Shown: piece by piece, positions 33,751-60,608 of the stretch
Layout of the letters: every line of letters starts with the position of its first letter
Position numbering within the stretch: the stretch's first letter is position 1
Source of the DNA: Saccostrea cucullata
Lineage: Eukaryota
Direction of reading: 5' to 3'
Assembly: GCF_032062105.1 (NCBI RefSeq)
Contig: NW_026931074.1
Coordinates: 345,587-409,586, forward strand
DNA: 64,000 nucleotides
The notes under the pieces: generated by a model
The model's input: only the letters and a program-made list of their open reading frames with translations
What the model was told of the DNA's origin: nothing
Database searches by the model: none
Made by a program: the position numbers and the translations under genes

Positions 33751-33870
33751 TCATCGCCGTACAATGCTTCCTGTTGGTCGCATGGTCTCTACTCGGTTCT
33801 GAAGGTCATCAATTCGGACATCCTTCAGGTGTATCAAATGTTCCATTCTTTTTATCTTTGCTTGTAAGAT
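33751..33870 (-). CDS. SPEF1: SPEF1-like gene A exon 8 (terminal): ILQAKIKRMEHLIHLKDVRIDDLQNRVETMRPTGSIVRR*
   Basis: Acceptor ttttag (plus 33871-33876 rc). Phase 0. Stop TGA at 33753-33751. 27/39 identical to the gene B terminal exon. Confidence 0.65.
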   Translation of the reverse strand: MLQAKIKRMEHLIHLKDVRIDDLQNRVETMRPTGSIVRR

Positions 33871-34146
33871 CTAAAATGTTAAGATTTCATTTAAATGACA
33901 GCATTCAATATAATCCCAAGATTCTTATATCAGCCAAAGAGCCAAAATTAGTTTAGGGGATTGGATTTTGTCAACTGTTGAAATGCAGTAAAAGTTTTAA
34001 GCTTTAAAATTATATTTCTTACTAAAAATTTACATGGAAAATGAATATCAGTTGTGTATGATGTCAAACATTTAATAAACTTCAGGATCTGTCAGTGCAA
34101 TTAGCAGAGACATTCAAACAAAACAACAATTAATATATTATCATTC

Positions 34147-34315
34147 ACAAGAGGCCCATGGGCCACATTGCTCACCTGAGCAAATCTGCTAGGAAAAACC
34201 ACAAATCAGCTCAGTATTGAAAACTTTACCAGGGTGGGGGTTTGAATTTTATACTACTTGAGGATGCCTCTGTATTAATATAGCATATAACTTTACTTTT
34301 CTTGAGCCTTTGGCT
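34147..34315. mobile_element. Short MITE-like member (about 170 bp) of the gctcacctgagc-terminus family, in the last intron of gene A
   Basis: caagaggcccatgggccacattgctcacctgagc.....gagcctttggctcaggtgagc. Inverted termini. The ggcccatgggcc palindrome is shared with 52205 and 6070. Confidence 0.5.
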
Positions 34316-34372
34316 CAGGTGAGCTAAAAAACAAAGAGATTTCAAAACATGTTTGATTTGATTAGAACTGAC

Positions 34373-34502
34373 CTGAATGGTTTCTTCTTTGGTCAAACTT
34401 TCCTGAACTTTTTCCTCAAATAGTATCCTGGGGACATTATCTCCCTCTAGTTTGTTAGATCCGAGGGTTTTCTGTCGAGGGGGGTCAGGATAATAATCAG
34501 GC
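34373..34502 (-). CDS. SPEF1: SPEF1-like gene A exon 7 (130 nt): (R)PDYYPDPPRQKTLGSNKLEGDNVPRILFEEKVQESLTKEETIQ
   Basis: Acceptor cattacag, donor gtcagt. Phase 1 to 0. Identical length to gene B exon 59914-60043 and gene C exon 9615-9744. Motif VPR.LFE.KVQE.L.K.ETIQ is shared. Confidence 0.6.
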
Positions 34503-35779
34503 CTGTAATGAAACCCAAATATCTATAATGTAAACCTCAGATTAGAGGGGGATAAGAAATTAAATGAAACCTTTAATAATATATTAATTATCTATACATG
34601 TAATTTCAATTGATTCTTGCTTGCATGTTCACTTGTATATTTCCCTCTTGACTTATTATTCAATGGTTATAAAAAAGGTTTATCAGATATATATATATAA
34701 AGTGATATAAAATATTAAGGATACTCCGACACACAACAAATTGACAAATTAAATTAATAAAGAATATTCAGACACATAACTATAAAAAGACAAATTAATA
34801 TACAATATAAAGGTTAGTTATTTATTGTTAGGAGATGTACACTTTATATTGCACAATGCTTTCACCCATCCTCCATTGTATCCTGATTTATATACACATG
34901 TATTAAAACAGGGTTCATTTTGCCTTATCAAATTTGCAAACAAGTCCACCCTTCATCATGTATTAAAAGAACAATACATGCAACTCTTTCTGTACAGTTT
35001 TAGCCCCCCCCCATCACGAAACTGATGACTAGGGTGAAATTGGCAAAAAATGAAAAGGGGGCAAAATTTCCTTGTTTTTATTTTGATTGAATGAACAATA
35101 CTTGTTATTGTTATAGAAACCCAAGGCTCTGATAAATCACAACAATTTAAAATCCAGATGCCATGACACCCGACACCAATGTCAGTGTTGAAGCAGTTTG
35201 CAATGATTTAGAAAAAGACTTCAAAACCAGACTTACAACTTTATTTACACATAAATTTTTAAGCTATTAAAATTTAATTTTGCTGGTTTTCTTATGTGAT
35301 CATGAAATGATCGAGCTCAATGTTCAAAAGGGAGCATCATTCAATATCCATGTGTGTGTGATAATAAAGATAAATGAAATTAAAATAGTTTTGTACCTAC
35401 ACGTATCAAGGTTTCTATTATGGTGAAATGGTTAAAAATTGGTAAATATTGTTTTCTTATGTCATGCCTGTTTAGAAATGTATTTTAAAATAGAATCACT
35501 GAATTGGGAATTTAACAGTTACCGTTAATTTACTCTGTTTTTACATCACACTTCATCTCATTAGAGAAATTTAAATTCAAAGATTAAATCTGTATTCCAT
35601 TAAAAAATTTCAAACACAAAGAATACTTCTTTTCTATATATGACAGCAGGGAAATTAAAAAATATATATATAAATAAAACAATACAGGAAGTTGTTGCAG
35701 ATTATAGGATAGGTGAAAAAAGAGTTCAAAACAGACACTGTAGATGAATGAAGATAAAGTGGTTCTCCCTGTCTGATAC

Positions 35780-35836
35780 CTGGCCAATGATTCTAATGTT
35801 ATCACTTCCTTGCTTTCAGCATGCAGCATTACATTT
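35780..35836 (-). CDS. SPEF1: SPEF1-like gene A exon 6 (57 nt): (G)NVMLHAESKEVITLESLA(R)
   Basis: Acceptor gattttcag, donor gtatcag. Same length and phase as gene B exon 59192-59248 (YIKRRADSKEVVTLDKLL). Confidence 0.55.
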
Positions 35837-36843
35837 CTGAAAATCACCAAACTCTATCAAAATTGTTGCCTTTTTAGTTTACAGAGATAATTTGTATACT
35901 AATGTCTGTTGTTATACCTAGACAAGTTATAGAATGTCTAATACATGTACTATGCTTTGTAAGAAGTGCATGCATGTGAAATACTAATGAAGAAATGTTC
36001 AAGAACAATGTATAACATAGTTTTGATGAACTTGATTAAATGTATCAATGACCTCCAATATTTTTTACACTGTGATTTAAATATATTCTTTAAAGACTGA
36101 CTGTAAAATATGGAAATTCTGATGAAAGTATTGTAAAACTGACAAGCAGATGATGACTTTTATTATTTCTAAGCTTTCCATGTTTCTTCCATGCACACAG
36201 CATATAAACATTTTAATACACAAAGCCATTGAATTAGATTTTTACTTTCAGTTAAATACTTTCAGTTGATCATTAGTAGACATGCTCTTTACTTAACATG
36301 ATCGCAGTGCATAAGACCACTGAGTGTACTGGGAGGTTTCATACAGTCCATTGTCATAATAGGACATCGTATTAAACCTAATAAAATAACAAACAATGTC
36401 AGTTATTCTGCATTTGCTTTACTAACTTGAAAACAAGAGGCCAATTGGCCATACAATTACAAATGGAAATAAACTATTCTCATTGTCTTATTAAAATCTC
36501 TCACATGCACTAATAATTTTTCCATGAAACTTCTATTTATGGTGTCAAATAAAGTTATTAGTAAAAAACATTTTAGATCTATAAATTTTTGTTTTTGTAC
36601 TTTGAGAATATTTAAGGAATGAAGCTAATTTCAACTTATATTATACGATATAACATAACTTGGGGCAGTTTACGATTTATAAACCACGTAAGGTCACAGA
36701 GCTACTTGAAGGAACATTTTCCTCAAAAGAGTTTTTAAATTTAACACAGTGTTTAAAGCAACAAACATAAACTGAACACATACCGGTATATATATTGAGT
36801 TAAAGTGAACACATAAACAATATTTGTCAAAAAATGTACCTAC

Positions 36844-36898
36844 CCTCCTCCTTTTGTGGGGTTCTGAGATTTCTTCTCTACTCCCCGACCAGGAACAG
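36844..36898 (-). CDS. SPEF1: SPEF1-like gene A exon 5 (55 nt): (A)VPGRGVEKKSQNPTKGG(G), low-complexity linker
   Basis: Acceptor tttatag, donor gtaggtac. Counterpart of gene B exon 58187-58238 (SPGRSRKGVSPTRGGGG). Phases chain correctly to the exons on both sides. Confidence 0.5.
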
Positions 36899-37069
36899 CT
36901 ATAAAGAAACAATTCTGTATGTAATTAAAGGTTAGTGAAAGATTAGAGATTTTACTATTGATAAACAACTGAAATATCTAAAGCAAAGAGCCTTAAGAGG
37001 CCCCTTAAAATTTTATTCATCAAACCTATTCTTTGTAAACATGCAGTAAAGAATTTCTAAGACACTGAC

Positions 37070-37287
37070 CCATATACTGATCAGCCTCGGGTTTGTCACT
37101 CTCGGGCCGACGTCCACCTTTGGCTCGGTGTGTCGACTGTAGAGGTTGCTTGGTCAGTTCCCATTCGGCTCGCTCGAGCTTGCGTCTGAGCATCATCAGG
37201 AACTTCTCAATCACGCCAGGTTTGGCCATGATAATATCTCCTATGACATCATCACCCAGGGTAAAATTTAGTTTGCTCAAAACTTTT
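37070..37287 (-). CDS. SPEF1: SPEF1-like gene A exon 4 (218 nt): (R)KVLSKLNFTLGDDVIGDIIMAKPGVIEKFLMMLRRKLERAEWELTKQPLQSTHRAKGGRRPESDKPEADQYM(G); C-terminal half of the CH-like domain
   Basis: Acceptor ttttatccag, donor gtcagtg. Matches SPEF1 family ..RKVLSKLNF.V.DDV...I..C.PGV.E.VL..LR..L.E... as remembered. ORF track 37026-37280(-) covers most of it. Confidence 0.65.
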
Positions 37288-39300
37288 CTGGATAAAATTT
37301 TAAAAATGAAACTTTTAATTAGAAAATATTAAACTGTATTCAAAATGTTTTCTGATATATCATAATCCTGAAGAAATAGTTCTAATATATAAAATTTAAG
37401 CACCATTTGCTCAAATGTATCGATCTCTTTTAAAACCCTTTTCATTGCAATATACTCACTGGAATTCAGTAACATTTATACTGCCTAGAGCTTAAACATA
37501 TATAAATAGTCATAGTCCTACACTATTTACAGTTCACATACACGACATACAGTGTACATTTATATTGAGAGGAGGGTGTCTAAATACATGTAAATGTAGC
37601 TAACTAAATATTTGTTATTACAGTAAAAGAAAGGACAACTTGATTATGAACTATACATATTTAATTTAGGACTATGCTAAGTATCATATGCCCATAAGAA
37701 ATATTTATGGTTTTGGTTAAAACCAAAGTAAAGATCAGAAAGCTTTGGATAAGATGAAAATTGGACTATCATTTAGGACATTTTATCAGAACAAAGTTAC
37801 TATGTTTTATTTTATATGGTTTTGTAAAATTTAATACACTCTCTATCTCTTTAATAAATGAGCTGACTGCTCAAGCAAACAAAAAGGGGGAAGGGTGTTG
37901 AAAGTTCAAGGTCACTTCTAAAATAGTTGGATTGCTCTCAAGAATCTGTATCCAGTCCAGTTCAAATCAGATCCTTAGTTGATTTAATAAGTAAGAACAA
38001 TTTCTAAAACGAGGTAAATTTATACAAACAAGTTGAAGAAACAAGAATATCAGCAGTCTTGTTTTAAGACATCACTTCATAAGTTCTATGGTTGATACAA
38101 TGACCTTGTCAGCAAATACAATATATCATTGAGTCAAATGCTGACTGATGTTTTTCATACTAATTGTTTGTCCATTATTTACACACTGAATTGACAACAA
38201 TTTTTTCTGTTATTTCTCGATCATGACTGGTCAGCAGGGGATGCTCACTCCTCAATGGCACCAGGTTCCACCTCTGATGTTTCAGAGGTCTGTGTTTGCT
38301 CTGCTCCTATTTTTTATTGTTTAATGGACTTTTGAGCTTGAATACTGTTTGTTATCTCCATATATTTCATCCTTGAAACTACTCACATAGATTGCTTCAC
38401 CTTATGTAGCAAAGCTCAGACAGGTCTTAACTTATAAATCTAATAGTAATATGATTATCTTAGTAATACTGTCAATGAGTTAAACCCATACTCTGTCACT
38501 GAAAGCTTAATTCATATCACTCATGCATTTTAATGTGATTGTAGAAAATTGATATGTGATTTGAAAATATTGTTTTAAAAAAATCAGTGCATATAAGTAA
38601 AAAGAAAGTGATATAGTCTGTACATTCAATTCATAAAGGCAAGATAGGAAAATCAGAAAGAACAATTCTAGACTTTTTATCAATTAAAAAAAAAAATTGT
38701 AACATTTAAGCTAATCAAGCAGCATGCATGCTCTTGTACAGTTCAGAGTTAGAGTAACGAGGAGAACACTGGGGGAGGGAATGCCGCCAGGTATGTAGCA
38801 CTATTTATAGATCAGAGCTGTGTAGGAGGCAAGAAAAGCACTACTTTTTATATAGTTGGGATCCCGAGGTTTCATTCCTTAAAACTATTGCCTGTATCTT
38901 TTTATCTTCAGTATTCTGTGCCATTTACCTATACAGTATAACTTGGTTATAAAGAACTTGCTTATATGGAAATCTCATTGAAATGGAAACTTTTATGAAT
39001 CCTTATTTAATTTTACTCATATGAGCTTCATTTAAATAGTTTTGGTTAAATAAGAAATTAAAATTTGAAGTGCCTGTGATATTATCTATTCAGTGCATTC
39101 TATTCAATTTAGAAATGATGTGACTTTTATTAAATGCCCGAACTTATTTCATAGAATACCAGTATATTTGGGTGATCTAACACAAAACTGGTTGTTAGAT
39201 GGACAATCACAAGAATATAAAATATTAAATAATTGGCACCCAATTAGGGTATTTTATAAAATCTGACAGATTATATGGGACCAGACACCAGTACAGTTAC

Positions 39301-39412
39301 CTGTTGAGAACTTTCCAGTTGAGCAATTTTTTGTCTGTAGAATTGGCAGTGGAGTAGTTGTGTAGGTCCACCAGAGTAGGAAACTTATTGTGAATAATCT
39401 CGGCTACCAAGA
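39301..39412 (-). CDS. SPEF1: SPEF1-like gene A exon 3, variant b (112 nt): (V)LVAEIIHNKFPTLVDLHNYSTANSTDKKLLNWKVLN(R)
   Basis: Acceptor gttttcag, donor gtaactg. Same length and phase as variant a. Closest to gene B variant b (HKFPHLVQKHNYSTANSTSKKMENW). Confidence 0.6.
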
Positions 39413-39898
39413 CTGAAAACAACCAAATATTACAGACTAATTCCAGAGCTTTAGAGAGAAAGAAAAGATTATAGAAGAGTACAGAGATGCTCAAATATTT
39501 ATACCACCTGATCATTGCTTTCAAATTATAAGTTGATAAATTCAGGAATCTATCTCTGGATTTGAACATCTCTGTAGAGAAACTCACTAGCACAGCAGAC
39601 ACACACAAGAACTGTACTGTACACTGCATTGTTCCATACATTCATCATCTGGATCAATCACATCCTATCATTTGTATCACTTTTTGGAATTAATTATTTA
39701 CAGATGAGTTATATACGTAGAAAGTTAAAGATTGATTATTTCTTGTTTGGAAAATCCAATGAAAGAAAGCCTATAATATTTATTAATATTATAAGTACAA
39801 GTAGTCAAGGAATTGGATTATGTCAAGATGATGAATGCCTGAATGAGACGTTGATATGAGTCACATCAATGTAGTTTGTGGAGACATGTGCCCTGTAC

Positions 39899-40010
39899 CT
39901 GCTGAGGACCTTCCAGTTATCCCTCTTAATACCTAGCGCACTCCCAGGAGAGTAGTTGTGCATTTGTATCAACTGTGGTTTAAAATGGCGGATAATCTCA
40001 GCTACCAACA
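39899..40010 (-). CDS. SPEF1: SPEF1-like gene A exon 3, variant a (112 nt): (V)LVAEIIRHFKPQLIQMHNYSPGSALGIKRDNWKVLS(R)
   Basis: Acceptor actactgtag, donor gtacaggg. Core of the CH-like domain (VLVAE...FP.LV..HNY.PANS...KL.NW..LNR in SPEF1). Closest to gene B variant a (VQNFFPQLVQMHNYTP). Confidence 0.6.
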
Positions 40011-40198
40011 CTACAGTAGTAACATCAACCATTCACATCTCACATTTACCATTCATATTTCAACCATCAGTAAGCATGGTAATCAAACAATATTTCAATT
40101 CAACCAAAACACTAAACATGGAAAAGCATTAGACTACTGTAAGTCGTTTTAATTCTACGGTGTTAAAATATCACGATATCTCAAAAAGTACCAATTGC

Positions 40199-40345
40199 TA
40201 TGGCTTTAATTTCACGCTGCCAGAAATTAATTCAACATTTCGTTTAAGTATTTAAATGATTTAAAAACAAATAATAACATTAACGAAGGGGTTAATTTCG
40301 CGGAAAAATTATAAATCGCGAACAGAGCGAAATTAAAACCATCGT
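40199..40345. mobile_element. Possible small MITE (about 145 bp), CpG-containing, related to the 14342-14562 family
   Basis: ggctttaatttcacgctg...cagagcgaaattaaaacc form imperfect inverted termini. The interior tttcgcggaaaaattataaatcgcgaac resembles ctcgcgaacttcgcgaaaatttctcgc in the 14.4-kb MITE. Confidence 0.25.
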
Positions 40346-41482
40346 GAATATTTGCCAATTTACAGTATCTAATGCATCACTGCTTTGTTTTCATGATCAA
40401 ATTGTAATAAATTCAAAATTAATGTCTTCTTTCAATTATGATTAAACAACAACCAATGAGATTACATGTTACATTTTATATTACTAAGTTAGTGCTGCTG
40501 TGCTGTTATATATGAAATATTCATGGGGTCGAATATTCTGAATCCATGTTCTTGGTCTTTAAACTACATGACTACATTGATAGTATGATAGAATGACTTG
40601 AGCAAGTGATTCCATAATATATCAATTAATGCTTTTTCCAGCAAGGTAGTGGATATTATCTGAGTGAAGCTAGTGTTCCATGGATGAGTTTGCAAAATAG
40701 CTGTCATTTAAGCCATGATTGTCATGCTTTCTGCATGAAAAACACTTTATAAAATACTGTCATAATTGGTTATTATCCAAGATTAAATATTTTGGTTTTG
40801 GAATGATTTTCTACCTATACAGGTCAAAACTGTCCCCTGGTGTAAAAGAACATTGAATCTGACCAGAATTATGAGGAAGACCAGTAAATTGATCTCTGGA
40901 CAGTGTTATGTATGTTCTCTATCAAACCAAATTAATACAGTCTATCCAATGGCTTTCAAAAAGCCTAAAGAATATTTTTTGATTGGATACAAAGACAAAT
41001 AAGATGTGTAAAATGGAGGTTTGAAGGGAAATTGCAATAGCAGTATGATAAGCTTTGCTAAACTCCGTGCTTAATTATTGCCATAATGTCAGTTCATTAC
41101 AAAAAAAGTCAGTTTTAATAGTAGTGAATTATTGTATGTACATTTCTATTAGGCACACCAAAAATCATTGACCAAACAAGGTTAACTAGAACAGGGCTTA
41201 CAGTCCAAATAAAATAAATATACTGTGAGCCTGTAGATTTATAATGACATCACATTTTGCAAACTCATTATGTCCCTCTTGACTGATATTCTGATATTTT
41301 GGTTTTACAACGAATTTAATGAAAAAAAAAATGGATCAGTAAATTTCTTGCCATGAAAAACTAGAAGGCAAGCATTTATGACAAACAAACTCTATATATA
41401 CCTATCTAAACTGGCAGGCAGTTAATCTATAATGCTGTCAAATCCTGACACTCTAAGATTAAATGTTTCTTTATTGATATTC

Positions 41483-42111: not shown

Positions 42112-42787
42112 AGATATTCTCCACATCACTCAACAGATTTGGTCCAAACTTTTCAGAGGCCTTAATCATTATGAATTTAATTCACATAAAAATATAAAAA
42201 ATATTTACGGACTTTATTGAGGCATGAGCAATTCCAAGAATAACTTATAAGTAGTAACATCCATTTTAGATTTCTAGTTCTACATTTATAAATATAAGTA
42301 TACATGTAGCAGATATCTTACTGCATGCTTTTGGACAGCTAAATGGCATTATCATGTATGTAACAATGTTTATATACTTATGTAGGGGATTAACATCAAT
42401 AAAGAAAGTATACCAAGAAGTTGAAATGGATTCTTTTTTATGAAATGTAGAAGAGTAATAAAAATCCTTACTTGGAAGCACCAGGAGTCAAAATTCAAAA
42501 ACTATTTTTATGACTATAACTATTTAGCATATTATCATCAAGTTTGATGGAACGCTGTATTATGTAGATGTAGATGTATTTGTGAATGTATTTCAGTGCA
42601 AAAACATGACTGACAAGTATGAACTTATTCTGTTCAGCAATATGATGAATATTTACAGATAAAATAAAACTGCCACAACCAGTAGTTAGCAGAAGCAGTA
42701 CCAGATTTCAACATTAAATTTGCCATTTAATTGAAGTCTCCTTGTTTTCTTTGGGCTATCTTTAATTTGTCATTTGAAGGATCTTAC

Positions 42788-42887
42788 CTCCATCAGAGAA
42801 GTCCCTAGATATGTTTTTCTTTGGCCTGCTGAGTGGTATACTGTCGACCCAAGCATAAAGCTCCTCCAACTCCGCGTCGTCAGCCAT
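42788..42887 (-). CDS. SPEF1: SPEF1-like gene A exon 1: MADDAELEELYAWVDSIPLSRPKKNISRDFSDG
   Basis: ATG at 42887-42885 (minus). Donor gtaagat after 42788. Matches the SPEF1 N-terminal signature LY.W.D.IPLSRPK.N..RDFSDG as remembered. Confidence 0.7.
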
Positions 42888-42896
42888 GATAACCGG

Positions 42897-43120
42897 CCTG
42901 CCTAATTGAAGACCTACAGGTAATTGAAGACCTAGAGAAGACCTACGGAAGACCTACAAAAATGGGGGATATATACAGCAAAACTGATATGATATTCTGA
43001 TTAAGCATGTCCTAAATATGTAAAATACACAAAAAAGTTTTATAAAAAGAAGTTTAAATGTGTATTTTTTAAGCTCGGTAAGGGGAACTATAGACGATAC
43101 GGAAAGAACGATAACTCTGG
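42897..43120 (+). repeat. Left arm of an about 225-bp inverted repeat containing (GAAGACCTAC)x4 direct repeats, immediately upstream of the gene A start codon
   Basis: ctgcctaattgaagacctacaggtaattgaagacctagagaagacctacggaagacctacaaaaatgggggatatatacagcaaaactgatatgatattctgattaagcatgtcc... is about 90% identical to the reverse complement of 44600-44869. Confidence 0.8.
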
Positions 43121-44599
43121 CTGACTTGTCTTGTAAACACCAACACGCTCATTTATGTGAAGTTTATAGGAAGAATTATATATGTATATGACATAATAAA
43201 AAAAATGCAAATGATTTTGTTGAGTTTTTTAATTATGAATTATGATAAAGAAATCAGCTGAATGATGAATTTTGATGAAGGTAAAAATATCAATAATTAT
43301 CATTATTTCATTTATCAAATTAATATTCTACTTGAAATCTATAGTTAATATTTAATAAATATTGTAATTCTTTTAATATGTTTTATGGGATAAATATTAA
43401 GTATTCAAGTTCAAATTATTGATATGTATGCTGTGGATTTGTCTCAATTAACCAATATTACTCTGTACTAAGGGCTTCGATCTTCACTAATTTGTTGTAT
43501 TATACACAGACACCCTGAGGATATATCCGTGTTTTGATTGCAATTATCAACACATCCCACTTGCTCTGATGAATGTTAATTTGCAGTCAACAGAGCAAAG
43601 ATATAAAAAAAATATTTATTTTATATCTTAAAAATGCTAGCAAGAATAAACAAATAAAATTATTGTGCATTTATTCAGAATATAACTTTATACTAAAATG
43701 AATTACGTTTTGAATTTTTTTTTTAATATTCAAAATGGTCATCTTTTTTCAATATAACACATTTATATGACATTCACGAGGAATATTTAATAACTTAATT
43801 AAATGTATATTTCCAGATAACATGCTGTATGCCAAGAAATAGGCACTATAATATGAAACATAAGGATTTATTTCTTTTACATTTTGAGCCAAAATATACA
43901 TGTACATTATATCAAATCTTGAAGATACCAGGTATACCATTCAATAATTAAATTAAAAGAAAATACACACTTTTTAAAATTGAATAAAATAATAAACACG
44001 CATGTTATCACACATAAGAAATGCATGCATATTTTAAAAAAAAATAATGATGCTTTGACTCGGGGGAAATAAGATTTTGAAAGTGATTATGTCTATGTTC
44101 TTGAAAAATTACTTCAAATTCTTTTAACTGCAATTTTAAAATTTTCATTCTCTACATAAATGCAAATCTTATAAAAATTTCCAGATGTTATAAATGACAT
44201 TACTAGGTATTATTAATAACAAGAACACAAATCATTTATGAATTTTTATTAATGATCAACAATTCAAACCTGAACTAAATATTATACTGATCTATTTATA
44301 AACACATATAGAATACTAAATATAACGTACATGTATATACAAGTGTATGTATTTATAATGATTTTATGATTGACATAATATATTATGGTATTATAAATTA
44401 TGTACAGTGTTTACAATTTTACTGATTTTAATAAATAATTTTTTTTAACAAAAAAGAATTGTTTCTGACTGAATATTTCATTTTATTAATATTTTTTTTT
44501 TTATCTTTGATGTATATATAAAGTATCTCCAATGATTTTTTTTAACATTATTTTTTATTTACATTTTTCTGATAATTACATTTTCTTGATGTTTTGGTG

Positions 44600-44869
44600 A
44601 ACAGCTGATTTGTTATTTACGCGAGTTATCGTTCTTGCTGTAGGTCTTCTGAGAGAAGAAATAGTTCCCCTTACCGAGCTTAAAAAATACTCTTTAAAAC
44701 TTCTTTTTATAAAACTTTTTTGTGTATTTTATATATTTAAGACATGCTTAATCAGAATATTATATCAGTTTTGCTGTATATATCCCCCATTTTTGTAGGT
44801 CTTCCGTAGGTCTTCTGTAGGTCTTCAATTACCTGTAGGTCTTCAATTAGGCATGACCATGATAACTGT
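44600..44869 (-). repeat. Right arm of the inverted repeat, about 600 bp upstream of the gene B start codon
   Basis: ...ggggatatatacagcaaaactgatataatattctgattaagcatgtcttaaat...tttgtaggtcttccgtaggtcttctgtaggtcttcaattacctgtaggtcttcaattaggcatg. Flanks an extremely AT-rich 1.5-kb core (43120-44600). Confidence 0.8.
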
Positions 44870-45471
44870 ATCAATTGGTGTTATTCTGTCCAAATAAAAT
44901 CTATTTTAAGAAAATCTGAAGGTTCCCCGGCGTCATTATTTGATTAGTCAATAACATGTGTAAGATAGCAAAGGTATATATGAAAAATTAAGTTTACTTA
45001 CACTGTATATAAGAAAGGAGGACAAGATTATCACTAAATACACAAAATCATAATAAAGCGTCCGTCGCAACGAAACTCCCACAATTCCCATATACGGGAA
45101 ATACAGGATAGCTCGTTCATCAACTCGGAAAAATAACAAAACCATGCCAGCATATTGCAGATGAAATATTTACAACAATAGATAAAATATGAATTTTTAC
45201 TATGAATAACTTGACTTACTGTTATTTTAGGATAAACTATGCGTTTTTTGAAGTGTAATACCTAATTCGACTTTTTTACGGACTACTTATCAACGTAGAC
45301 AATTTTCGGAATTTATGATGCATGACGGGAAATTCGTTGACAACAAAACAGTCATGGACGCTTTCTACGATCTTCTGTGTATTTAGCGATAAAAGACGTC
45401 ATTTATTTCTGTAAAATCTATACAGTATGTCATGATTGTAACATTTTCATAGAACTAAGTGTAAAAGAACA

Positions 45472-45613
45472 ATGTCTGTAGATAAAATCCACCCAGTTGA
45501 ATCCGGCCTGGATTATTTCGACGATGCAGAGTTGGAGAATCTTTACACATGGATTGACAGCATCCCTCTTTCCAGACCGAAGAAAAACATAGCAAGAGAT
45601 TTTGCTGATGGAG
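45472..45613 (+). CDS. SPEF1: SPEF1-like gene B exon 1: MSVDKIHPVESGLDYFDDAELENLYTWIDSIPLSRPKKNIARDFADG
   Basis: ATG at 45472. Donor gtatat at 45614. Same SPEF1 N-terminal signature as gene A exon 1. Confidence 0.7.
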
Positions 45614-50222: not shown

Positions 50223-50334
50223 TTTTGGTGGCCGAGATAGTCCAGAATTTCTTTCCTCAGCTGGTGCAAATGCACAACTACACCCCGGCGAGTTCAACCA
50301 GTCAAAAGAGGGAGAACTGGCTCCTCCTCAACAG
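50223..50334 (+). CDS. SPEF1: SPEF1-like gene B exon 2, variant a (112 nt): (V)LVAEIVQNFFPQLVQMHNYTPASSTSQKRENWLLLN(R)
   Basis: Acceptor tcctgtag, donor gtacagg. Phase 1 in, phase 2 out. Joins exon 1 (..DG|V) and exon 3 (R|KVFKKLNF). Confidence 0.6.
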
Positions 50335-51122
50335 GTACAGGAAGGTCATGCTCTGCTGCCTTTGTGGTTTTTGGTGCTGTAGTTCACTTAACATCACCTG
50401 GAAATCTCAGTGACATGTCACATACTTAAGTTCTAGTATTTGGGACTAACACTCTTGTCTATAATTATGATTATAGATATACAGCTTTTAATTTTATTTT
50501 ATATATATCTTTGAGGTTACTTTTAATTTGTAAATTTTAACCATCTTGTTTATTTTCATGCTGTTTGCCCTATGCTGAATTAATTCCTATAGTAACTGAT
50601 ATCCAGGTGATTCCCTTTGTAGCAGCTGATAGCGTCTGTATCAATGTCTTATAAATATGTCTAGGATTAATGTAGTTTATATCTATACTGTATGTTGTCC
50701 CTCAGTTCTAATGTAGTACTGAGTAGTCACCCTTTACTGTACAATTAAGACATGCTAGATCTCTCATTTTGTCATATCTGTCATATTAATCAGGGCTTTC
50801 AGAATCTGCTGAGATATGGTACTTTTACCTGAATCAAATCATGATTGTTAATTATCAGCCAAAATATTTGTTGGAGAAAATTTGATAAAATTGCTTCCAT
50901 AAGGTTCCCCTATTTTTGTCAAAGTACCATGTTTCACATCTTTTTGAAAGCACTGATTAAACTTACCTCAGTTGATATATATATATTTTTTTTACTGATT
51001 TTATTTTTTTTCTTAAAAACTAATGTAAATAATTTGATACTGTTAGTAAGCTAGGTTTTGTGTGTGTGTATTCCTGTGTTAGAACTTTGTTAGAAATGTG
51101 CTTTTCCAAAAATTCATTTATT

Positions 51123-51169: not shown

Positions 51170-51215
51170 CATTTTGTCCGTCGTCCGTCCGTCTGTCCGT
51201 CTGTAAACTTTTCAC

Positions 51216-51252
<37 letters not shown>

Positions 51253-52188
51253 TGACCAAACTTGGTACAAAGCATCCTTGGGTAAAGGGGAATTTAAATT
51301 GTTAAAATGAAGGGACATATCCCCTCGCAAGGGGAGATAATCAAGAAAAGACAAAAATAGGGTGGGGTCATTAAAAAATCTTCTTCTCAAGAACCACTGG
51401 GCCAGAAAAGCTGAAACTTATGTGGAAGCATCCTGGGGTAGTGTAGATTCTAAATTGTTCAAATCATGACCCCCGGGGGAAGGGCGGGGCCACAATGGGG
51501 AATCAAAGTTTTACATAGAAATATATAGGAAAAATCTTTGAAAATCTTCTTCTCAAGAACCACTGGGCCAGAAAAGCTGAAACTTATGTGGAAGCATCCT
51601 GGTATAATGTAGATTCTAAATTGTTCAAATAATGACCCCCGGGGGATGGGTGGGGCCACAATGGGGAATCAAAGTTTCATATAGAAATATATAGGAAATA
51701 TCTTTGTCAAGAACCACTGCTGAAACTTATGTGGAAGCATCCTGGTATAATGTAGATTCTAAATTGTTCAAAAAATGACACCCGGGGGGAGGGCGGGGCC
51801 ACAATGGGGAATCAAAGTTTTATATAGAAATATATAGGAAAAATCTTTGAAAATTTTCTTCTCAAGAACCACTGGGCCAGAAAAAGTGAAGCTTATGTGG
51901 AAGCATTCTTGGGTAGTGTTAATTCTAAATTGTAGGAATCATGACCCCCGGGGGAAGGGCGGGGCCATTATAGGGAATCAAAGTTTTACATAGAAATATA
52001 TAGGAAAAATCTTTGAAAATCTTCTTCTCAGGAACCACTGGGCCAAAAAAGCTGAAACATATGTGCCCATGGAAGGATCATGGGGTAGTGTAGATTTCAA
52101 AATGTCTAAATTATGATCAGTGGGGTAGGGTGGGGATGCATTATGTATAACAAGGGTGAAATCTGGTAAAGAACAGAATGGTCAAAGC

Positions 52189-52225: not shown

Positions 52226-52229
<4 letters not shown>

Positions 52230-53065: not shown

Positions 53066-53177
53066 TACTGGTTTCTGAGATTATGTATCATAAATTCCCC
53101 CACCTGGTGCAGAAACACAACTATAGCACGGCAAACTCCACCTCAAAAAAGATGGAGAATTGGTTTTATATGAACAG
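53066..53177 (+). CDS. SPEF1: SPEF1-like gene B exon 2, variant b (112 nt): (V)LVSEIMYHKFPHLVQKHNYSTANSTSKKMENWFYMN(R)
   Basis: Acceptor tactttcag, donor gtaacaag. Identical length and phases to variant a. Not listed as an ORF in the track because it is short, but it reads open in the exon frame. Confidence 0.55.
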
Positions 53178-54469
53178 GTAACAAGTGGAGACCCTTGTAC
53201 AGATTTAACCTGGTTTGTTTGGTTCCCTATTAAATCAGAACCTCTCCCCTCCTTATGACATATAGCTAGAACACCCCCCTATACAAACACTTCTCCGAAC
53301 CCCACTTCTTTATATCTAATTTAATTTGTCAAAGACTGATAAATTGCAAATTGTTTTGACATTCAAAATTAAACTTGAATTTAAATTTAAACATATACAT
53401 GCTTATGTAAACAGAAAACATCGTTAGAATACTCAGTAGTACATTTATCTTCTTATTAAAAGCATGCTTTACCATAAGAAAAGGAATAGTTTACAAAATT
53501 TCCAAACTCTTTTTGACATTGACAAACCACTCCCATCACTTTAAGTTTATAAATTTCAAAGCTTGTCTGAGATTAATGTTATGGAGTCCTAAAATCCAAA
53601 AGTATGAGTACTATGATCATTACATGAAGTTGTACAAGTAACTTAATTTTTTCTTAAAATGGAACATTTTGGTCTTAGACTTTCTTACTGAACATGAGTT
53701 GTTATATATTGAAAATGACACATTTGTTAGAAAAACAGAAAACAGTACCTTTTCAGCCCCACCCCCCACCCTCGCCCCTTCCTTTCAGACTCAGATGCAT
53801 GTAAATAATTTTGCATGTAAATAATTTTGTCATTAAAGAAATGTTCATCATGTAATTCACCATTTTATAAAGAAAGCTCTGAAGGTTCAATTTTAAACAT
53901 TATAGTTTTACCATATTTCATGAAATCATGTTGAAATTGAATTCACTATTTTTCCAATGCAGTGTTTTTGAAACCCAAAGCCAACACCTGGAAGATTTGT
54001 TCATTAATTTCTCTTGAATTTTAACTAAAATACTTACACTCAGTGCCACGATCATAAGCCTATCTCTGTATCAATGATCTAGTGACTGAAATGAGGAGAA
54101 TTGTTAAACACATGATACAGTATATAGGAGTTCATTACTGAGTCCTTGCAGATAAACTTAGGATATGATAAATATATGTATATCACAGATGGGTCAGTGA
54201 AGAAGTGGATATATTCTCATATACATTGTATTGTGAATTTCTTTGTGCCTTCCATATTGATATTTGTTCTTTTAGGGCAGTTACCTTTTATATGGAGTTC
54301 ATTGTTAAATACACAACACACATAATTAAAACAAAGATATTTATTTTCAGTAAAAGTATAGGTAATGATTCTCTTATAAAATTAATATCTAAATAGCTGT
54401 ATCTCACTTCCATTCTCAATGACCATGTTGTGTAGGATTGCTCCATGAAAATTAAAATTTTTATCCAGT

Positions 54470-55590
54470 CTTTGCTGGCTTAAGGCTGTGAGATTTGTAT
54501 TTAGGAGGCTTTTATTGAGTTGGTTAGATATAGGTAGGAGTCTTAAATTGAGTCATCTCAAACTAGGCTGTGAGATATTTTAGCCTTAATTTGTTTAAGA
54601 TCTCTCTGAATAGGCTGTGAGATATTTTTATATAAGAGCCTTTGTTTGAGTTATCTCAGACCAGACAGTGAGATACCCAGGAATTTATAAGCCTTAATTT
54701 GTTGAAGTCCTCTCAAACTAAGTTTGTGGGATATATTTATATATTAGCCTTTGTTGAATGTTTATAGTCCTCTCTGACTAAGGCTAAGCTGTGAGATATA
54801 TTTATTTGAGGCCTTGGTTTGAGTCATCTTTGACTAGACAGTGTGATTTATTTATAAAGGAGTCTTTGTTTAAGTTCTCTCAGATCAGGCAGTGAGATAA
54901 ATAGGATTCTGTTTGAGTTCTTTCAGACAAGACTGTGAGATATACAATTTTGTTTGAGTCCTCTCAGATCAGGCTGTGGGATATATAGGATTCTGTTTGA
55001 GTCCTCTCAGACCAGGCTGTGAGATAAACAATCCTGTTTGAGTCCTCTCAGACTAGTCTGTGAGATATATAGGATTCTTTTTGAGTCCTCTCAGACCAGG
55101 CTGTGAGATATATAGGATTCTGTTTGAGTCCTCTCAGACCAGGCTGTGAGATAAACAATTCTGTTTGAGTCCTCTCAGACCAGGCTGTGAGATATATAGG
55201 ATTCTGTTTGAGTCCTCTCAGACCAGGCTGTGAGATAAACAATTCTGTTTGAGTCCTCTCAGACTAGGCTGTGAGATATATAGGATTCTCTTTGAGTCCT
55301 CTCAGACCAGGCTGTGAGATATACAATTCTGTTTGAGTTGTCTCAGACTAGGCTGTGAGATATATAGGATTCTGTTTGAGTTCTCTCAGACTAGGCTGTG
55401 AGATATATAGGATTCTGTTTGAGTCCTCTCAGACCAGGCTGTGAGATATGTAAGATTCTGTTTGAGTCCCCTCAGACCAGGCTGTGAGATATATAGGATT
55501 CTGTTTGAGTCCTCTCAGACCAGGCTGTGAGATATATAGGATTCTGTTTGAGTCCTCTCAGACTAGGCTGTGAGATATAGGGAGTCTCTG
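54470..55590. repeat. Minisatellite of about 25 units of 41-43 bp in the gene B intron between exon 2b and exon 3
   Basis: Unit gagtcctctcagaccaggctgtgagatatataggattctgttt with variant ...gagataaacaattctgttt. Copies are degenerate at the 5' side (54470-54900) and homogenised at the 3' side. ORF 55048-55242(-) is an artefact. Confidence 0.85.
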
Positions 55591-56120
55591 TGTCATCTAA
55601 GACTAAACAGTGAGGTATAAGACATAAATAGAAAACCTGTTATTATGGACTAGGCTAGAATATAAAGCAGGACTGAGTGTTGTGTACCCAAAAACAAATC
55701 TTTTAGCTGGCTTATCCCATTCAACTTCTCTATTAAAACTAATTCATATAAATATATATTTCCCCCTTTCTAATAATTTCAGTGCTGCGTGTTATATTGT
55801 TTATTCTTTCTTTTCTGTAATTTGCAATTGTTTATGTTTCTTCTGCTTTTTTGGTGGCTATGTAATGTTTATTTAGAATAATATCATGGTACATGTATAT
55901 TACATTCTATGAATTAATGTATTCACTGACAGTTGAACTATTTTTAAACATTTGAGGAAAAGTGAGAAAAGTAAATGTGTTTCAAAAGATTTTTTCAAGA
56001 AAATATGTATTAAGAATGCTTGAACTTAAAAAATTAAGATTTATAAATTTCAAACTATTATAAATATCCATATTTTTTCCACATATGAATATTTTATAAA
56101 ATCATTCTTCGTTGCTACAG

Positions 56121-56329
56121 AAAAGTGTTTAAGAAACTGAACTTTGAACTTTCGGATGCCCTGATTCGGGATTTAGTGAATGCCAAGCCAGGAACCATTG
56201 AGTTACTTTTACGAATGCTGAAACGGAAAATAGAAATGGCAGAGTGGGAAATGAAAAGAAATCCGCCCCAACGGCAGGGAGGAGGTAGGAGAAATGAGAG
56301 TGATCAGCCGGAGGCCGACCAGAATATAG
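56121..56329 (+). CDS. SPEF1: SPEF1-like gene B exon 3 (209 nt): (R)KVFKKLNFELSDALIRDLVNAKPGTIELLLRMLKRKIEMAEWEMKRNPPQRQGGGRRNESDQPEADQNI(G)
   Basis: Acceptor gttgctacag, donor gtaggtat. ORF track 56125-56373(+). Paralogous to gene A exon 37070-37287. Confidence 0.65.
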
Positions 56330-58186
56330 GTAGGTATATAACGGGGCCACTTAACGGTAATATAGGCTTATAGAAATATTAACATAGTATGAACATATAT
56401 TATATTTGCAACAGTGAAATACTGTAATGTTTTTATTGATTAAAAATGCTATTAAGTCACAGTGTGAAAAGATATCAAAATGTGTGACAAATATCGTAAA
56501 ACTCAAGATTTTCATTACTAAAAGGAATAGTGTTCGACATGTAAATGAAAAATACTTTAAATTTGACTGCATATATAATAGAGAGTAAATACCCCATTCA
56601 GACATGAGAGACTTAATTGACTATCAATTCTGAATTTTTAATGCTTTGATTTGTCAAATTATGAATTATTAAAAAGAATGGTGAGTTTCGTGATCAAATA
56701 CAATAATTTTTGTATTATTTTTAAAAACTTAAGATATCTCCATGATCTCGTACAAAATGCAAAACACATCATTAATGAATAAAAATTATGCTATATTTTT
56801 TCAAGGTCTAGCCTCAAAGAAACACTACTTTCTCAAAAGTAAAACCTGAATGCTTTTAAGCACAGTGCTTTGGATAATGCACACATTACTGAGTGCAGTG
56901 TATCTTAGGTTAAAGGTCAAACTCAGCTTTGGCATGCATTACAAGTTTGAATTGTTTGTGGTATTTAGCTATAAGTCTGTTCTTTAGTCAATCCACTGAA
57001 ATTCCAAAATTATATCTCAAGTGAAATTCATGTACATGTATTAAAAATGTATAGAAATGATTAAATTATCATAAATTCATAATCAATAGGCATGGGCACG
57101 ATTACTGTAAAATGTAATCGATTAATAATTGATTACTTTGGCGAATGTTATGTAATCGATTAATGATCGATTATAGTCAGTTTTGTCCTGTAATCGATTA
57201 CTTTAGGCAATGTAACAGTAATTATTTGATTCTTAATATTAAGTTGGATAAAGCGGTACATGTAAAAATTTGTTTCATCTAATATTGAATTCAAGGCAAT
57301 AAACTTATAATTGCCCATTTCATTTATTTACAGATCAATATTTTCATATGTGTTGGTGATACTGTTCAAAGGAAATTATTTGTACGTCGATCGGCAAACA
57401 TATCTTGTAATAAACAGTAAGTTCTCTTGTCTTGCTAATTTCTTTTACACAAAATTTCAAGAGCTGCTCTCTCTTTGTTTTTTGCTTTAATTGTTTACCT
57501 GTCAAAGGTCATTAAAAGTATGTAAAGAAAGGACAAATCAAGCTTTTGATATACTGCATTTAGATAAAATGTGCAGCTAATATAGTAATTTTGAAATTAA
57601 ATACATTGGATATATTTTGATATACAGTGTTTATTGTACTAGGTACATGTTTACAATTCAGAAATTGTAGATATATAATATGTTATTATACCATTGTATA
57701 ATGGTGATAGCATAGGTTAAATATTGTTTTGTAAAAGAAAACTATATTGCACACATATCGATTACATTGTATATTTGATATTTAAAATAGTTGTGATAAT
57801 GGCATATATTCTATAAATTGATAAACAGTAAGTTCTCTTGTGTTGCTAATTTCTGATATCAAAGTTGACAGAAGGAAAGAGAGAAATAGACACCAACTTC
57901 TCAGGCATGCACACATAATACATGGTATATTTGATATTTAAAAATATTTGTGATGTTGGCATATATTCTATAAATTGACTATTTCAAAGTCTAGATATCA
58001 AAGCTGACATCAGAAAATAGGAAGGCATGTATAATAGTTATATATAAATAGGTAATCATCAAAAGTATTGATATTTGGTGTCATATTCTACAGTCTTATA
58101 CTGTAGATTGTTAAGTGCAAGCTGTTATAGTTTATCATGACATAAATTGCTGTATCTGATTGGATGATTTTCTCTATGAATTGTAG

Positions 58187-58238
58187 GATCCCCCGGGCGG
58201 AGTAGAAAAGGAGTAAGTCCTACTCGAGGAGGAGGAGG
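58187..58238 (+). CDS. SPEF1: SPEF1-like gene B exon 4 (52 nt): (G)SPGRSRKGVSPTRGGG(G)
   Basis: Acceptor gaattgtag, donor gtaagtg. Phases 2 in and 2 out chain exon 3 to exon 5. Followed by a 3x about 57-bp tandem repeat (58262-58440) in the intron. Confidence 0.5.
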
Positions 58239-58261
58239 GTAAGTGATTGTACACAGTATAC

Positions 58262-58440
58262 ATTTTTACATTAATGATCACCCCCCCCCCCAGTAATTTA
58301 CCTCACTCAAAACCTCTCCACATTTCTATATTAATGACCCCCCAATAATTTACCTCTCCCAAAACCTCTCCATGTTTCTAATTAATGACCCTCCCCCTCT
58401 CCATTAATTTACTTTACTCAAAACCTCTCTATTCTCACCA
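58262..58440. repeat. 3 tandem units of about 57 bp with poly-C tracts
   Basis: attaatgatcacccccccccccagtaatttacctcactcaaaacctctccacatttctat / attaatgaccccccaataatttacctctcccaaaacctctccatgtttct / aattaatgaccctccccctctccattaatttactttactcaaaacctctc. Confidence 0.7.
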
Positions 58441-59191
58441 TTTTCTGCCTTTTGACACTGCAGATTTAATTAATCTAGTTGTTTGTGTATTACCAAAGTT
58501 AAATGCCAATGTAAAATGTAGAATACATGTATTACTTGCAAAATATAAAAAAGCTTTTGCCATTAAGATTTCGAGTTATGTTAATGTTTCTTTTCAGGGT
58601 CATATAAAACAAAACGATAACGTTAATGAATGTTAAACAGGATTAGTAATAGTGTAGAATTTTTGTGGGGGTTTAATTTTCCTTGTTTTTGATGTATGGA
58701 GAAACCCATGAATTTCGTTATTACCTCCACAAAATGTAAAATTTTATATGCGTTACTAATAAACATTTCCACCCATGAAATCATATGCCCACAAACCAAA
58801 ATTTGTCCCCACGAAAACTTGTGATTTTATAGTATTCCTTATAGACTGACTATAGCTGAAACAGGTGTATGAAAAACTGTCTATTTTAATCACTTTTCAT
58901 TTCGTTTTAATGGACACATTTTATATATTTCAAGATACTTATTTGATGATCATCAAGAATATTGGTGAGAATTTCACAAAAATCGTAACTTGTAACCTAC
59001 TTTCTCTAGGACTCGGAAAGTGGCTCATATTAATCATGTTGGATTAGATGAACTGATGGGGTATAGGTTTCATGTTTGTTGTCAATGCATGCTCTATAAG
59101 TAACACTAAAAAAAATAACTAAGCATGAAATTAACTTTATAGAAAATTGATCTGATTATGTGCTTTGATAACATAGTGTGGTGATTTACAG

Positions 59192-59248
59192 GTATATTAA
59201 ACGACGTGCAGATAGCAAGGAAGTTGTAACACTTGATAAGTTATTAAG
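59192..59248 (+). CDS. SPEF1: SPEF1-like gene B exon 5 (57 nt): (G)YIKRRADSKEVVTLDKLL(R)
   Basis: Acceptor gatttacag, donor gtatcag. Same length and splice phases as gene A exon 35780-35836. Confidence 0.55.
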
Positions 59249-59913
59249 GTATCAGACAGGGAGATATTCTGTGTCCTATTGTCTTTCTTACAAAATGATG
59301 CAGTGTTTCTTGCACACAGCCTTGGTGTTATATGTGTATCTTGTTTGTAATATTTATAATTGTCTACATTTCTTTTTATGCAAATGTCTTTTTACTTCTG
59401 CTAAGCAGTATATACTCTCTTTATAACAATATCTATTTAGAATCTATTATATCTTTATGCTTTATCAATAATGGACCCAAAAGAAAATTTGCTGCTAAAG
59501 TATCTTTATATTAATCAGAGATTAATTTTTTGTGTTTATAAAAAACATCTATGTAGTACATAGACTCTGTAGCAGTAAATGCCTTAAAGCACATATTTGC
59601 ATACATACAAGTACTTATTTTACTGGATTTAGGAAAAATATACAATGCATGCATATATCGAATACACGTTGTATAATTAGGATCGAGGCAATTCGTAACT
59701 GCATGGTTAAGGTTTTTGTGTTTTTCAAAAGTAAATACATTATTTTGTTGGTGTGAAGGATTGGGTTTTACCTTAAAACATTTGCTTTATTGTATACTGA
59801 GTGTAAATGGATAACTTTCATGCTGTAATTGACCTCTTGAAAACCTTTGCTGAAGACATGGCTCACTGTTAACTGTTTTGTTCTTGATAGATTCGAATTG
59901 TTAATAATTTCAG

Positions 59914-60043
59914 GCCTAGCAACTTTACAGAGAAACCCAAACAAAGAAGGATCCCCCCACATCTAACTGAGGCAAACTCTGTACCAAGACTGCTGTTTGA
60001 GGATAAGGTCCAGGAATGTCTGGCCAAAGATGAAACCATACAG
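59914..60043 (+). CDS. SPEF1: SPEF1-like gene B exon 6 (130 nt): (R)PSNFTEKPKQRRIPPHLTEANSVPRLLFEDKVQECLAKDETIQ
   Basis: Acceptor aatttcag, donor gtaggca. Start of the C-terminal coiled-coil region. Confidence 0.6.
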
Positions 60044-60491
60044 GTAGGCAATCATTTATTAATTGTTCTTTAATGTTCTCAGCTCTCAAGGTAGCCAAAG
60101 ATGTTCCAAGCTCTCTAGGTTACAGTCAAAAGCAAAATGTAAAAAAAAAGGGTTAAATATGTAGACCATGGAAGAAGAGGGATAAGCATTTATTTTGACA
60201 ATATAAAATATTGTCAAGAGAACATTAAAGATTTAACAGTCATTCACTTATTTGCAAAGAATAAGGATAAATGAGATACATCAAGGGAAAGTGGCAGCTA
60301 TTAGCTCTACATTTAATGAAGAGCAGACTATAAGGTTAATACAGGTAATAGGTGGAATAAACAGAGAGAGATAAAACATACATTAAGATGGGAGATGTGA
60401 TATATACATGCATAGTATAATAGTGATTATATTATCTGTCAATTTAATTACTATAAATCAAAATAATGTATAACCTACATGCATTCAACAG

Positions 60492-60608
60492 ATTTTGAAA
60501 GCAAAGGTCCATCGTCTGGAACATCTCATTCAATTGAAGGATGTACGCATCGATGATCTCCAGAATCGAGTGGAGTCCATGCGACCCACAGGGAACCTGC
60601 GGCGGTGA
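60492..60608 (+). CDS. SPEF1: SPEF1-like gene B exon 7 (terminal): ILKAKVHRLEHLIQLKDVRIDDLQNRVESMRPTGNLRR*
   Basis: Acceptor ttcaacag. Stop TGA at 60606-60608. Resembles the SPEF1 C-terminal coiled coil (..KVRRLEHLLQLKNVRIEDL..) as remembered. Confidence 0.65.
   Translation: MLKAKVHRLEHLIQLKDVRIDDLQNRVESMRPTGNLRR

Follow-up and report, generated by a model that had tools for sequence, protein, structure and literature searches.

Divergent SPEF1 paralogues with mutually exclusive exons and mirrored promoter modules in the oyster Saccostrea cucullata

How did two genes for sperm flagellar protein 1 (SPEF1, also CLAMP) come to stand head to head in an oyster genome, and are both of them functional? 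The locus lies in a 64,000-nucleotide stretch of the hooded oyster Saccostrea cucullata (assembly GCF_032062105.1, contig NW_026931074.1, positions 345,587 to 409,586 of the forward strand), which is the window analysed here and is numbered from its first letter. A preliminary description, made from the sequence alone, had placed two SPEF1-like genes in it, gene A on the minus strand and gene B on the plus strand. Both genes are genuine and their models correct, and RefSeq annotation already has them under the right name. Our analysis makes it very likely that they are two functional SPEF1 paralogues that arose by inverted duplication of a whole gene, are transcribed divergently from a compact, mirrored promoter, and generate isoforms through mutually exclusive second exons and through linker cassettes. 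In the mechanism that we propose, a whole gene including its promoter would have been duplicated in inverted orientation before the oyster genera split, giving A and B. The two genes would be transcribed apart from a compact core holding two mirror-image modules, one for each gene. Each gene would pick one of two 112-nt exons 2 and so replace 38 residues of its CH domain, and alternative exon-5 cassettes would separately vary the linker between CH_2 domain and coil.

Assignment to the SPEF1/CLAMP family and its CH_2 domain, proposed in the preliminary description, was borne out by profile and structure searches. All four isoform models matched Pfam CH_2 (PF06294) with 107-121 bits (E 5e-31 to 3e-35; cut-off 27 bits) and covered positions 1-95 of the 96 in the profile. 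The CH domain of human SPEF1 (PDB 2ee7) aligned without gaps at E 1e-36, and SPEF1 chains, including the microtubule-bound 9ntm and 9nw3, scored between E 1e-33 and 1e-36. Residues 218-263 of gene B match a fragment of the SPEF1 C-terminal coil (PDB 9ijx, E 9e-11), and this coil also matches the C-terminal stretch of Tetrahymena SPEF1A. SPATA4 and Chlamydomonas FAP178 share the CH_2 fold and gave far weaker matches than SPEF1: E 1e-9 (gene B exon-2a model) to 7e-9 for SPATA4, and E 3e-11 (2a model) and 7e-8 (2b model) for FAP178. The C-terminal regions of these two proteins did not match the oyster proteins. Relatives retrieved from a large protein collection are named sperm flagellar protein 1 or sperm flagellar protein 1-like throughout. 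Gene B with exon 2a is identical to RefSeq XP_062569258.1 ("sperm flagellar protein 1-like isoform X2"), gene B with exon 2b to XP_062569257.1 (X1) and gene A with exon 2b to XP_062569267.1 (X3); these RefSeq isoforms are computational models.

The coordinates of all exons are collected in Table 1. When joined on the minus strand, the exons of gene A form a 792-nt open reading frame (ORF) of 263 amino acids whichever exon 2 is used; AG/GT stands at all internal boundaries and the last base of the stop codon is 33751, in agreement with the exon chain and splice phases first proposed. The junctions are supported by transcript evidence as well. An independent complementary DNA (cDNA) contig (L003; Logan, run SRR26159588, 1011 nt, encoding protein P0040) has block ends that coincide with the proposed exon boundaries. 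This cDNA carries exon 2b only, skips exon 5, and aligns over 33875-33599, so that the 3' untranslated region (UTR) of gene A reaches at least to 33599. Gene B was located by tblastn with the gene A protein and its boundaries were then set exactly. Its coding sequence (CDS) on the plus strand is an 819-nt ORF of 272 amino acids, again with AG/GT at all boundaries and with the stop ending at 60608. The mirror set of exons that had been predicted for it was recovered without change, at lengths of 142, 112, 209, 52, 57, 130 and 117 nt.

The proteins of A and B are about 60% identical, their introns differ in size, and the genes span 9 kb (A) and 15 kb (B). The larger size of gene B is partly due to tandem arrays in its introns, one between exons 2a and 2b (51375-52135), whose unit measures about 166 bp, and one between exons 2b and 3 (54867-55579), in which a 43-bp unit is repeated about 17 times. 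The linker cassettes at exon 5 are all multiples of three nucleotides, with 57 or 60 nt in gene A and 57, 51 or 30 nt, or none at all, in gene B. The 60-nt cassette of gene A is conserved with isoform X1 of Magallana gigas and isoform X3 of Ostrea edulis.

Both genes contain two adjacent, homologous 112-nt exons 2 of equal phase. The preliminary description had recognized an either/or choice in gene A, which stands, while its restriction to gene A does not, since gene B has the same pair. Within one gene, 18-21 of the 36 in-frame codons are identical between 2a and 2b. As 112 is not a multiple of three, inclusion of both exons or of neither shifts the frame and introduces a stop between codons 37 and 89, which is over 50 nt ahead of the final junction; thus only products with one of the two exons are productive, and the others would probably be removed by nonsense-mediated decay. 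Known products carry exactly one exon 2: 2a in isoform X2 of gene B, 2b in its isoforms X1, X3, X4 and X5, and A-2b in the cDNA. Transcripts with orthologous A-2a and B-2a exons are represented by P0030, P0008 and P0032, the 2a exon of gene A being expressed in Crassostrea (P0030) and in O. edulis (P0032). Between S. cucullata and M. gigas, the ratio of non-synonymous to synonymous substitution rates (dN/dS) is 0.33 for A-2a, the least constrained copy, 0.13 for A-2b, 0.08 for B-2a and 0.15 for B-2b, values that are rough as each copy has 36 codons.

The intron between 2a and 2b is also partly conserved with M. gigas, over 86 nt upstream of A-2b (39413-39498) and over 72 nt downstream of B-2a (50335-50406); these flanks are candidate splicing-control elements for the choice of exon. 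Steric hindrance is unlikely to be the mechanism of exclusivity, given introns of 486 nt (A) and 2731 nt (B) between the two exons, and so is U2/U12 incompatibility, given that all sites are GT-AG. In being adjacent, homologous, equal in length and phase and used in either-or isoforms, the oyster exons resemble other mutually exclusive pairs that are held by reading frame and nonsense-mediated decay. Our literature search, partly judged from titles, found no description of mutually exclusive exons in SPEF1.

The exon pair appears in other bivalves too. Isoforms that swap exon 2 within a single gene were found in O. edulis, Crassostrea virginica, Mytilus, Ruditapes, Mercenaria, Dreissena and Mya. 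In these isoform pairs only 19-24 of the 38 residues of the exon-2 segment are identical, whereas no difference occurs in the 60 residues that follow, nor in the N-terminal segment except for gene A of O. edulis (41/45). Since single genes of mussels and heterodont clams show the swap, the exon pair predates the duplication of the oyster gene. Further, the order 2a then 2b is common to both genes in S. cucullata and M. gigas, and a tree of the 38-residue segment groups the copies by type and not by gene. Matches outside bivalves showed one exon-2 version per species, in a sample too thin to show absence of the pair there.

What the exchanged segment does can be considered in the light of the SPEF1 structures. 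Tetrahymena SPEF1 attaches through its CH domain to the seam of the central-pair microtubules, and dimerisation is predicted for its C-terminal helix (PMC11642885). Legal et al. placed the CH domain of SPEF1A at the seam between alpha-tubulin of protofilament 1 and beta-tubulin of protofilament 13, with R25, K28, R32 and S62 contacting beta-tubulin and H55, Y68, T72, R76 and K80 contacting alpha-tubulin (PMC11642885). Gene B aligns to Tetrahymena SPEF1A (PDB 9nw3) without gaps over 121 residues, at an offset of 10, which places exon 2 at SPEF1A residues 38-75. Exon 2 therefore encodes four of the nine reported contacts, namely H55, S62, Y68 and T72. In this alignment His55 is present in all four exon copies, and Ser62 is present in A-2b, B-2a and B-2b and replaced by Ala in A-2a. 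In the order A-2a, A-2b, B-2a, B-2b, position 68 is Asp, Leu, Glu and Glu, and position 72 is Val, Val, Leu and Tyr. Altogether seven of the nine contact positions are kept: R25, K28, R32, H55, S62 (apart from the Ala in A-2a) and K80 are unchanged, and R76 is present as Lys. The two that vary among the oyster genes, 68 and 72, also differ in human SPEF1 (Ser and His). To judge from these residues, the swap of exon 2 may tune the binding of the proteins to the microtubule seam or lattice.

The start codons (ATG) of genes A and B are 2584 bp apart, in accordance with the inter-start region of 2.6 kb first reported. This distance, however, is really composed of a core of about 0.6 kb and a transposon of 1.96 kb. 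The corresponding region of M. gigas measures about 523-524 bp, similar to the ancestral core without the transposon. Only two non-coding blocks in the inter-start region are conserved with M. gigas, and they are inverted copies of each other. Module 1 faces gene A and has the cores GGGAGTTTCGTTG (45080-45068) and TGTATTTAGTGATAA (45042-45028); module 2 faces gene B and has the cores GGGAAATTCGTTG (45327-45339) and TGTATTTAGCGATAA (45378-45392). The module core pattern of the 0.6-kb region is GGGAnnTTCGTTG. In the whole 64-kb window there are exactly two occurrences of the core GGGARWTTCGTTG, one on the minus strand (45080-45068) and one on the plus strand (45327-45339), where 0.01 or fewer would be expected, and the 26-kb M. 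gigas locus again has exactly two; the spacing is 246 bp in S. cucullata and 239 bp in M. gigas. TGTATTTARYGATAA is likewise present exactly twice in the window. The 5' end of the gene A cDNA (45043, minus strand) lies within the first conserved block, 429 bp from the ATG of gene B (45472).

Bidirectional promoters of paralogous pairs offer a parallel, as the oyster genes are head to head, with the cDNA 5' end of gene A less than 1 kb from the ATG of gene B, and have their conserved elements confined to a short spacer. Unlike those promoters, the two halves of the oyster spacer are inverted copies of one ancestral promoter and not a single shared element of the CpG type. One of the three M. 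gigas spef1 genes, LOC105339310, is reported as a marker of ciliated blastula cells (PMC12551290). Because of this and of the mirrored modules, co-regulation of A and B, perhaps in ciliated cells, as the preliminary description suggested, is plausible.

The transposon is a non-autonomous DNA element that adjoins the ATG of gene A within its 5' UTR. It has terminal inverted repeats of 193 nt (42899-43091 and 44661-44853) that are 96% complementary, sub-terminal GAAGACCTAC repeats, no ORF of more than 65 amino acids and no second copy within the window. It is flanked by two identical copies of a 10-bp target-site duplication, GTTATCATGG (left 42893-42884, right 44866-44857), which includes the ATG of gene A. 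The 10-bp duplication and the long terminal repeats suggest that it may be a Mutator-like element. In the cDNA, 44885-44857 is followed immediately by 42883 and the bases beyond it, with one copy of GTTATCATGG, the structure of an empty site. Removal of the element from this transcript by splicing was considered and rejected, as GT-AG, GC-AG or AT-AC boundaries are obtained at none of the offsets in the 10-bp repeat; the cDNA therefore derives from an allele or lineage without the element. The insertion is probably recent. On the strand of gene A, a sequence resembling a splice donor, CAG|GTAAT, lies in the terminal repeats towards one end of the element and TAG| sites resembling acceptors lie towards the other, and splicing through such sites might remove the transposon.

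The arrangement of the genes is an old one. Direct evidence of synteny is confined to M. gigas (OY970752.1), where the orthologue of gene A has a divergent CH_2 neighbour, the orthologue of gene B, 524 bp away, and a convergent third CH_2 gene downstream. The claim of two divergent paralogues produced by inverted duplication is upheld. Neighbour-joining with 28 proteins, in which each gene was represented by a single isoform and the exon-2 columns were removed, gave 100% bootstrap support to the oyster A clade and to the oyster B clade, and each contained Saccostrea, Crassostrea/Magallana and Ostrea. As both clades span these genera, the duplication predates their divergence. For every oyster listed, genes A and B share one chromosome-scale contig. 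To call the arrangement unusual, as the preliminary description did, was an overstatement, for it is an old and stable duplication of the oyster lineage that annotation had already captured.

Could the pair nevertheless be produced by something other than the duplication of a functional gene? Oyster genomes are highly heterozygous, and assembly errors can create inverted duplicates in them. Such a pair would result if a haplotig had been joined wrongly or if one SPEF1 gene had been assembled as a palindrome. This explanation has practically no credit left, in view of the divergence of A and B in protein sequence, intron size and span, their separate, fully supported orthologue clades across the sampled oysters, and the same arrangement in the independent chromosome assembly of M. 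gigas. An independent origin of the exon-2 copies after the gene duplication, or a relic status of one of them, is very unlikely. Raw nucleotide identities do show no clean split between the types (A2b shares 71/108 with B2a and 66/108 with B2b), and support within the exon-2 tree is low. Against such readings stand the shared order of the exons in both genes and both species, the grouping by type, the use of each type by annotated isoforms or transcripts, dN/dS values below 0.35 for all four copies and the swap within single genes of mussels and heterodont clams. Of these alternatives, the one with the best claim, though still an unlikely one, is that one copy has become non-functional or silenced, most plausibly gene A in this haplotype. 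The transposon puts a short upstream ORF (MVMPN*) and many ATGs in front of the coding sequence, and exon A-2a combines the weakest constraint with a lack of database representation in S. cucullata. The ORF and all splice sites of gene A are nevertheless intact, a spliced Saccostrea cDNA exists (from the transposon-free allele), RefSeq isoform X3 models the gene, and its orthologues are conserved and expressed in other oysters. As the identical target-site copies fit a recent insertion, any loss of function would be specific to this allele and not a property of gene A.

Two functional paralogues from an inverted whole-gene duplication remain the reading that we prefer, and several points weigh against it. 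The sister relationship of A and B has a support of only 54%, with Mytilus outside, and the deep nodes of the exon-2 tree have at most 32%. No exact database match in S. cucullata was found for the full-length A(2a) model, and no S. cucullata database protein uses exon A-2a. The patterns of the promoter modules were counted in the very sequences that had yielded them, and the transcription start of gene B is a predicted one, near 45377, mirroring that of gene A. Neither the RFX X-box (strict, loose and RTHNYYN0-3RRNRAC forms) nor the FOXJ1 consensus (TGTTTRY) was found in the core of S. cucullata or M. gigas, and the only FOXJ1-like matches sit inside the transposon, so that ciliary co-regulation is without motif support. 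Finally, the transposon parts the ATG of gene A from its promoter and 5' UTR, and this allele may have low expression or a different start.

Vertebrate SPEF1/CLAMP (2ee7, 9ntm, 9ijx) has the same N-terminal CH_2 domain and C-terminal coiled coil as the oyster proteins. The CH domain of human SPEF1 binds the microtubule seam, and the C-terminal helix of mouse SPEF1 dimerises the protein. A and B are inferred to have a role in cilia and sperm flagella. In contrast to the vertebrate protein, the oyster CH domain is spliced through mutually exclusive exons and the linker is drawn from alternative cassettes. To our knowledge, vertebrates have no SPEF1 cluster comparable to the three-gene cluster of oysters, which includes a gene C described below. 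Tetrahymena, with SPEF1A and SPEF1B, is another lineage with SPEF1 paralogues; its duplication is presumably independent of that in oysters, where the genes stand next to each other, point in opposite directions and have mirrored promoter modules.

Ciliary genes are commonly duplicated within particular lineages. The pair as such matters little, both genes and most isoforms being in RefSeq already under the right name. Secondary observations may interest those who study cilia and microtubules, the recognition of the seam by SPEF1 being a recent finding (PMC11642885). Bivalves appear to possess SPEF1 isoform pairs that differ only in the segment that holds four of the nine contacts, and these would provide a comparison for the residues that set seam affinity. 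The mirrored promoter with a polymorphic transposon at one ATG amounts to a small natural experiment on the loss of one promoter arm. A broader interpretation is put forward tentatively, as one that we hold to be possible rather than probable. An ancient pair of exclusive exons, which would predate the divergence of heterodont clams from oysters and mussels, would exchange a 38-residue CH segment that faces the tubulins across the seam, and so would give seam-binders with different preferences for lattice or tubulin isotype, for example in sperm flagella and in gill or larval cilia. Oysters would then have duplicated this system, promoter included, into a co-regulated pair that possibly heterodimerises through the C-terminal coil.

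Genes A, B and C form a three-gene SPEF1 cluster. A profile search with the gene C peptide retrieved P0134 (292 amino acids), in which a diverged CH_2 domain is followed by the exon-6 homologue and terminal exons of gene C (Table 1), and P0133 (260 amino acids), which is without a CH domain and has an N-terminus rich in Ser and Lys. Permissive tblastn searches of positions 1-9600 with A, B, human SPEF1 and P0134 did not find the CH_2 exons of gene C; as the CH_2 exons of P0134 are absent from the window, gene C runs off its left edge. The isoform predicted to start at the ATG at 1813, with a Ser/Lys-rich N-terminus and a coil like those of P0133, could pair with full-length SPEF1 while being devoid of CH-based microtubule binding. 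The terminal exons of gene C have the same order in M. gigas, with 67-93% amino-acid identity. In heterodont clams, isoforms of a single SPEF1 gene (P0057/P0058 in Ruditapes, P0063/P0075 in Mercenaria and P0077/P0076 in Mya) differ in the last 45 residues, of which 40/45 are identical, and alternative terminal exons comparable to those in gene C of oysters are thereby suggested. The Ruditapes SPEF1 gene has at least 46 annotated isoforms. No description of the oyster SPEF1 cluster was found in the same literature search.

Table 1 Features of the SPEF1 cluster in the S. cucullata window
Feature	Position	Strand	Evidence or remark
Gene A exon 7	33751-33870	-	Coiled-coil end and stop codon; ORF join
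Gene A exon 6, 130 nt	34373-34502	-	AG/GT; cDNA L003
Gene A exon 5a, 57-nt cassette	35780-35836	-	Skipped in cDNA L003 / P0040
Gene A alternative exon 5, 60 nt, FNTMSYYDNGLYETSQYTQW	36318-36377	-	AG/GT boundaries
Gene A exon 4, 55 nt	36844-36898	-	ORF join and cDNA L003
Gene A exon 3, 218 nt	37070-37287	-	CH_2 domain end and linker; cDNA L003
Gene A exon 2b, 112 nt	39301-39412	-	RefSeq isoform X3 and cDNA L003
Gene A exon 2a, 112 nt	39899-40010	-	Intact; alternative to exon 2b
Gene A ATG exon, proximal part	42788-42893 (CDS 42887-42788)	-	ORF join; cDNA
Non-autonomous DNA transposon, 1963 bp	42894-44856		In gene A 5' UTR, adjoins ATG
Gene A ATG exon, distal 5' UTR part	44857-44885	-	cDNA against genome
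Gene A 5' UTR intron, 116 nt, GTAAGT...ACAG	44886-45001	-	cDNA against genome
Gene A non-coding first exon	45002-45043	-	cDNA L003 5' end at 45043
Promoter module 1, facing gene A	45013-45088	-	88% identical to M. gigas over 76 bp
Promoter module 2, facing gene B, mirror of module 1	45327-45395	+	M. gigas comparison
Gene B exon 1, ATG, 142 nt	45472-45613	+	AG/GT; ORF join
Gene B exon 2a, 112 nt	50223-50334	+	Alternative to 2b; RefSeq isoform X2
Gene B exon 2b, 112 nt	53066-53177	+	RefSeq isoforms X1, X3, X4, X5
Gene B exon 3, 209 nt	56121-56329	+	ORF join
Gene B exon 4, 52 nt	58187-58238	+	ORF join
Gene B alternative exon 5c, 30 nt	58935-58964	+	Isoform X4
Gene B alternative exon 5b, 51 nt	59010-59060	+	Isoform X3
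Gene B exon 5a, 57 nt	59192-59248	+	Isoforms X1, X2; skipped in X5
Gene B exon 6, 130 nt	59914-60043	+	ORF join
Gene B exon 7, 117 nt including stop codon	60492-60608	+	ORF join
Gene C, third SPEF1-like paralogue, 3' part only in window	1813-11547	+	Convergent with gene A
Gene C alternative first coding exon	ATG 1813 to ~2243	+	P0133 mapping
Gene C exon	~3777-3880	+	P0133, next exon
Gene C exon-6 homologue, 130 nt	9615-9744	+	tblastn
Gene C alternative terminal exons, three in tandem	10583-10717, 11079-11213, 11413-11547	+	Pyrimidine-rich TAG acceptor, own stop each

The surroundings of the cluster are rich in repeats. Between genes C and A lies a satellite array of about 8 copies (12819-14100), repeated every 161 bp or so and with 85-91% identity. 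The region 15718-26111 holds inverted and dispersed copies, for example 15720-15985 with 21317-21056 and 16737-17139 with 26108-25711, and degenerate tandem arrays are found at 17.9-18.8 kb and 23.4-24.4 kb. Rfam found no structured RNAs in the window. On the minus strand, ARAGORN identified a sequence resembling tRNA-Val(CAC) at 17569-17639, perhaps a true transfer RNA (tRNA) gene or else a tRNA-derived repeat. Two direct repeats of 580 bp (27497-28076 and 29921-30500), 99.5% identical, flank a minus-strand ORF of 226 amino acids (28384-29064) that has no Pfam match; the whole, 27497-30500, looks like a short, recently inserted element of the long terminal repeat type.

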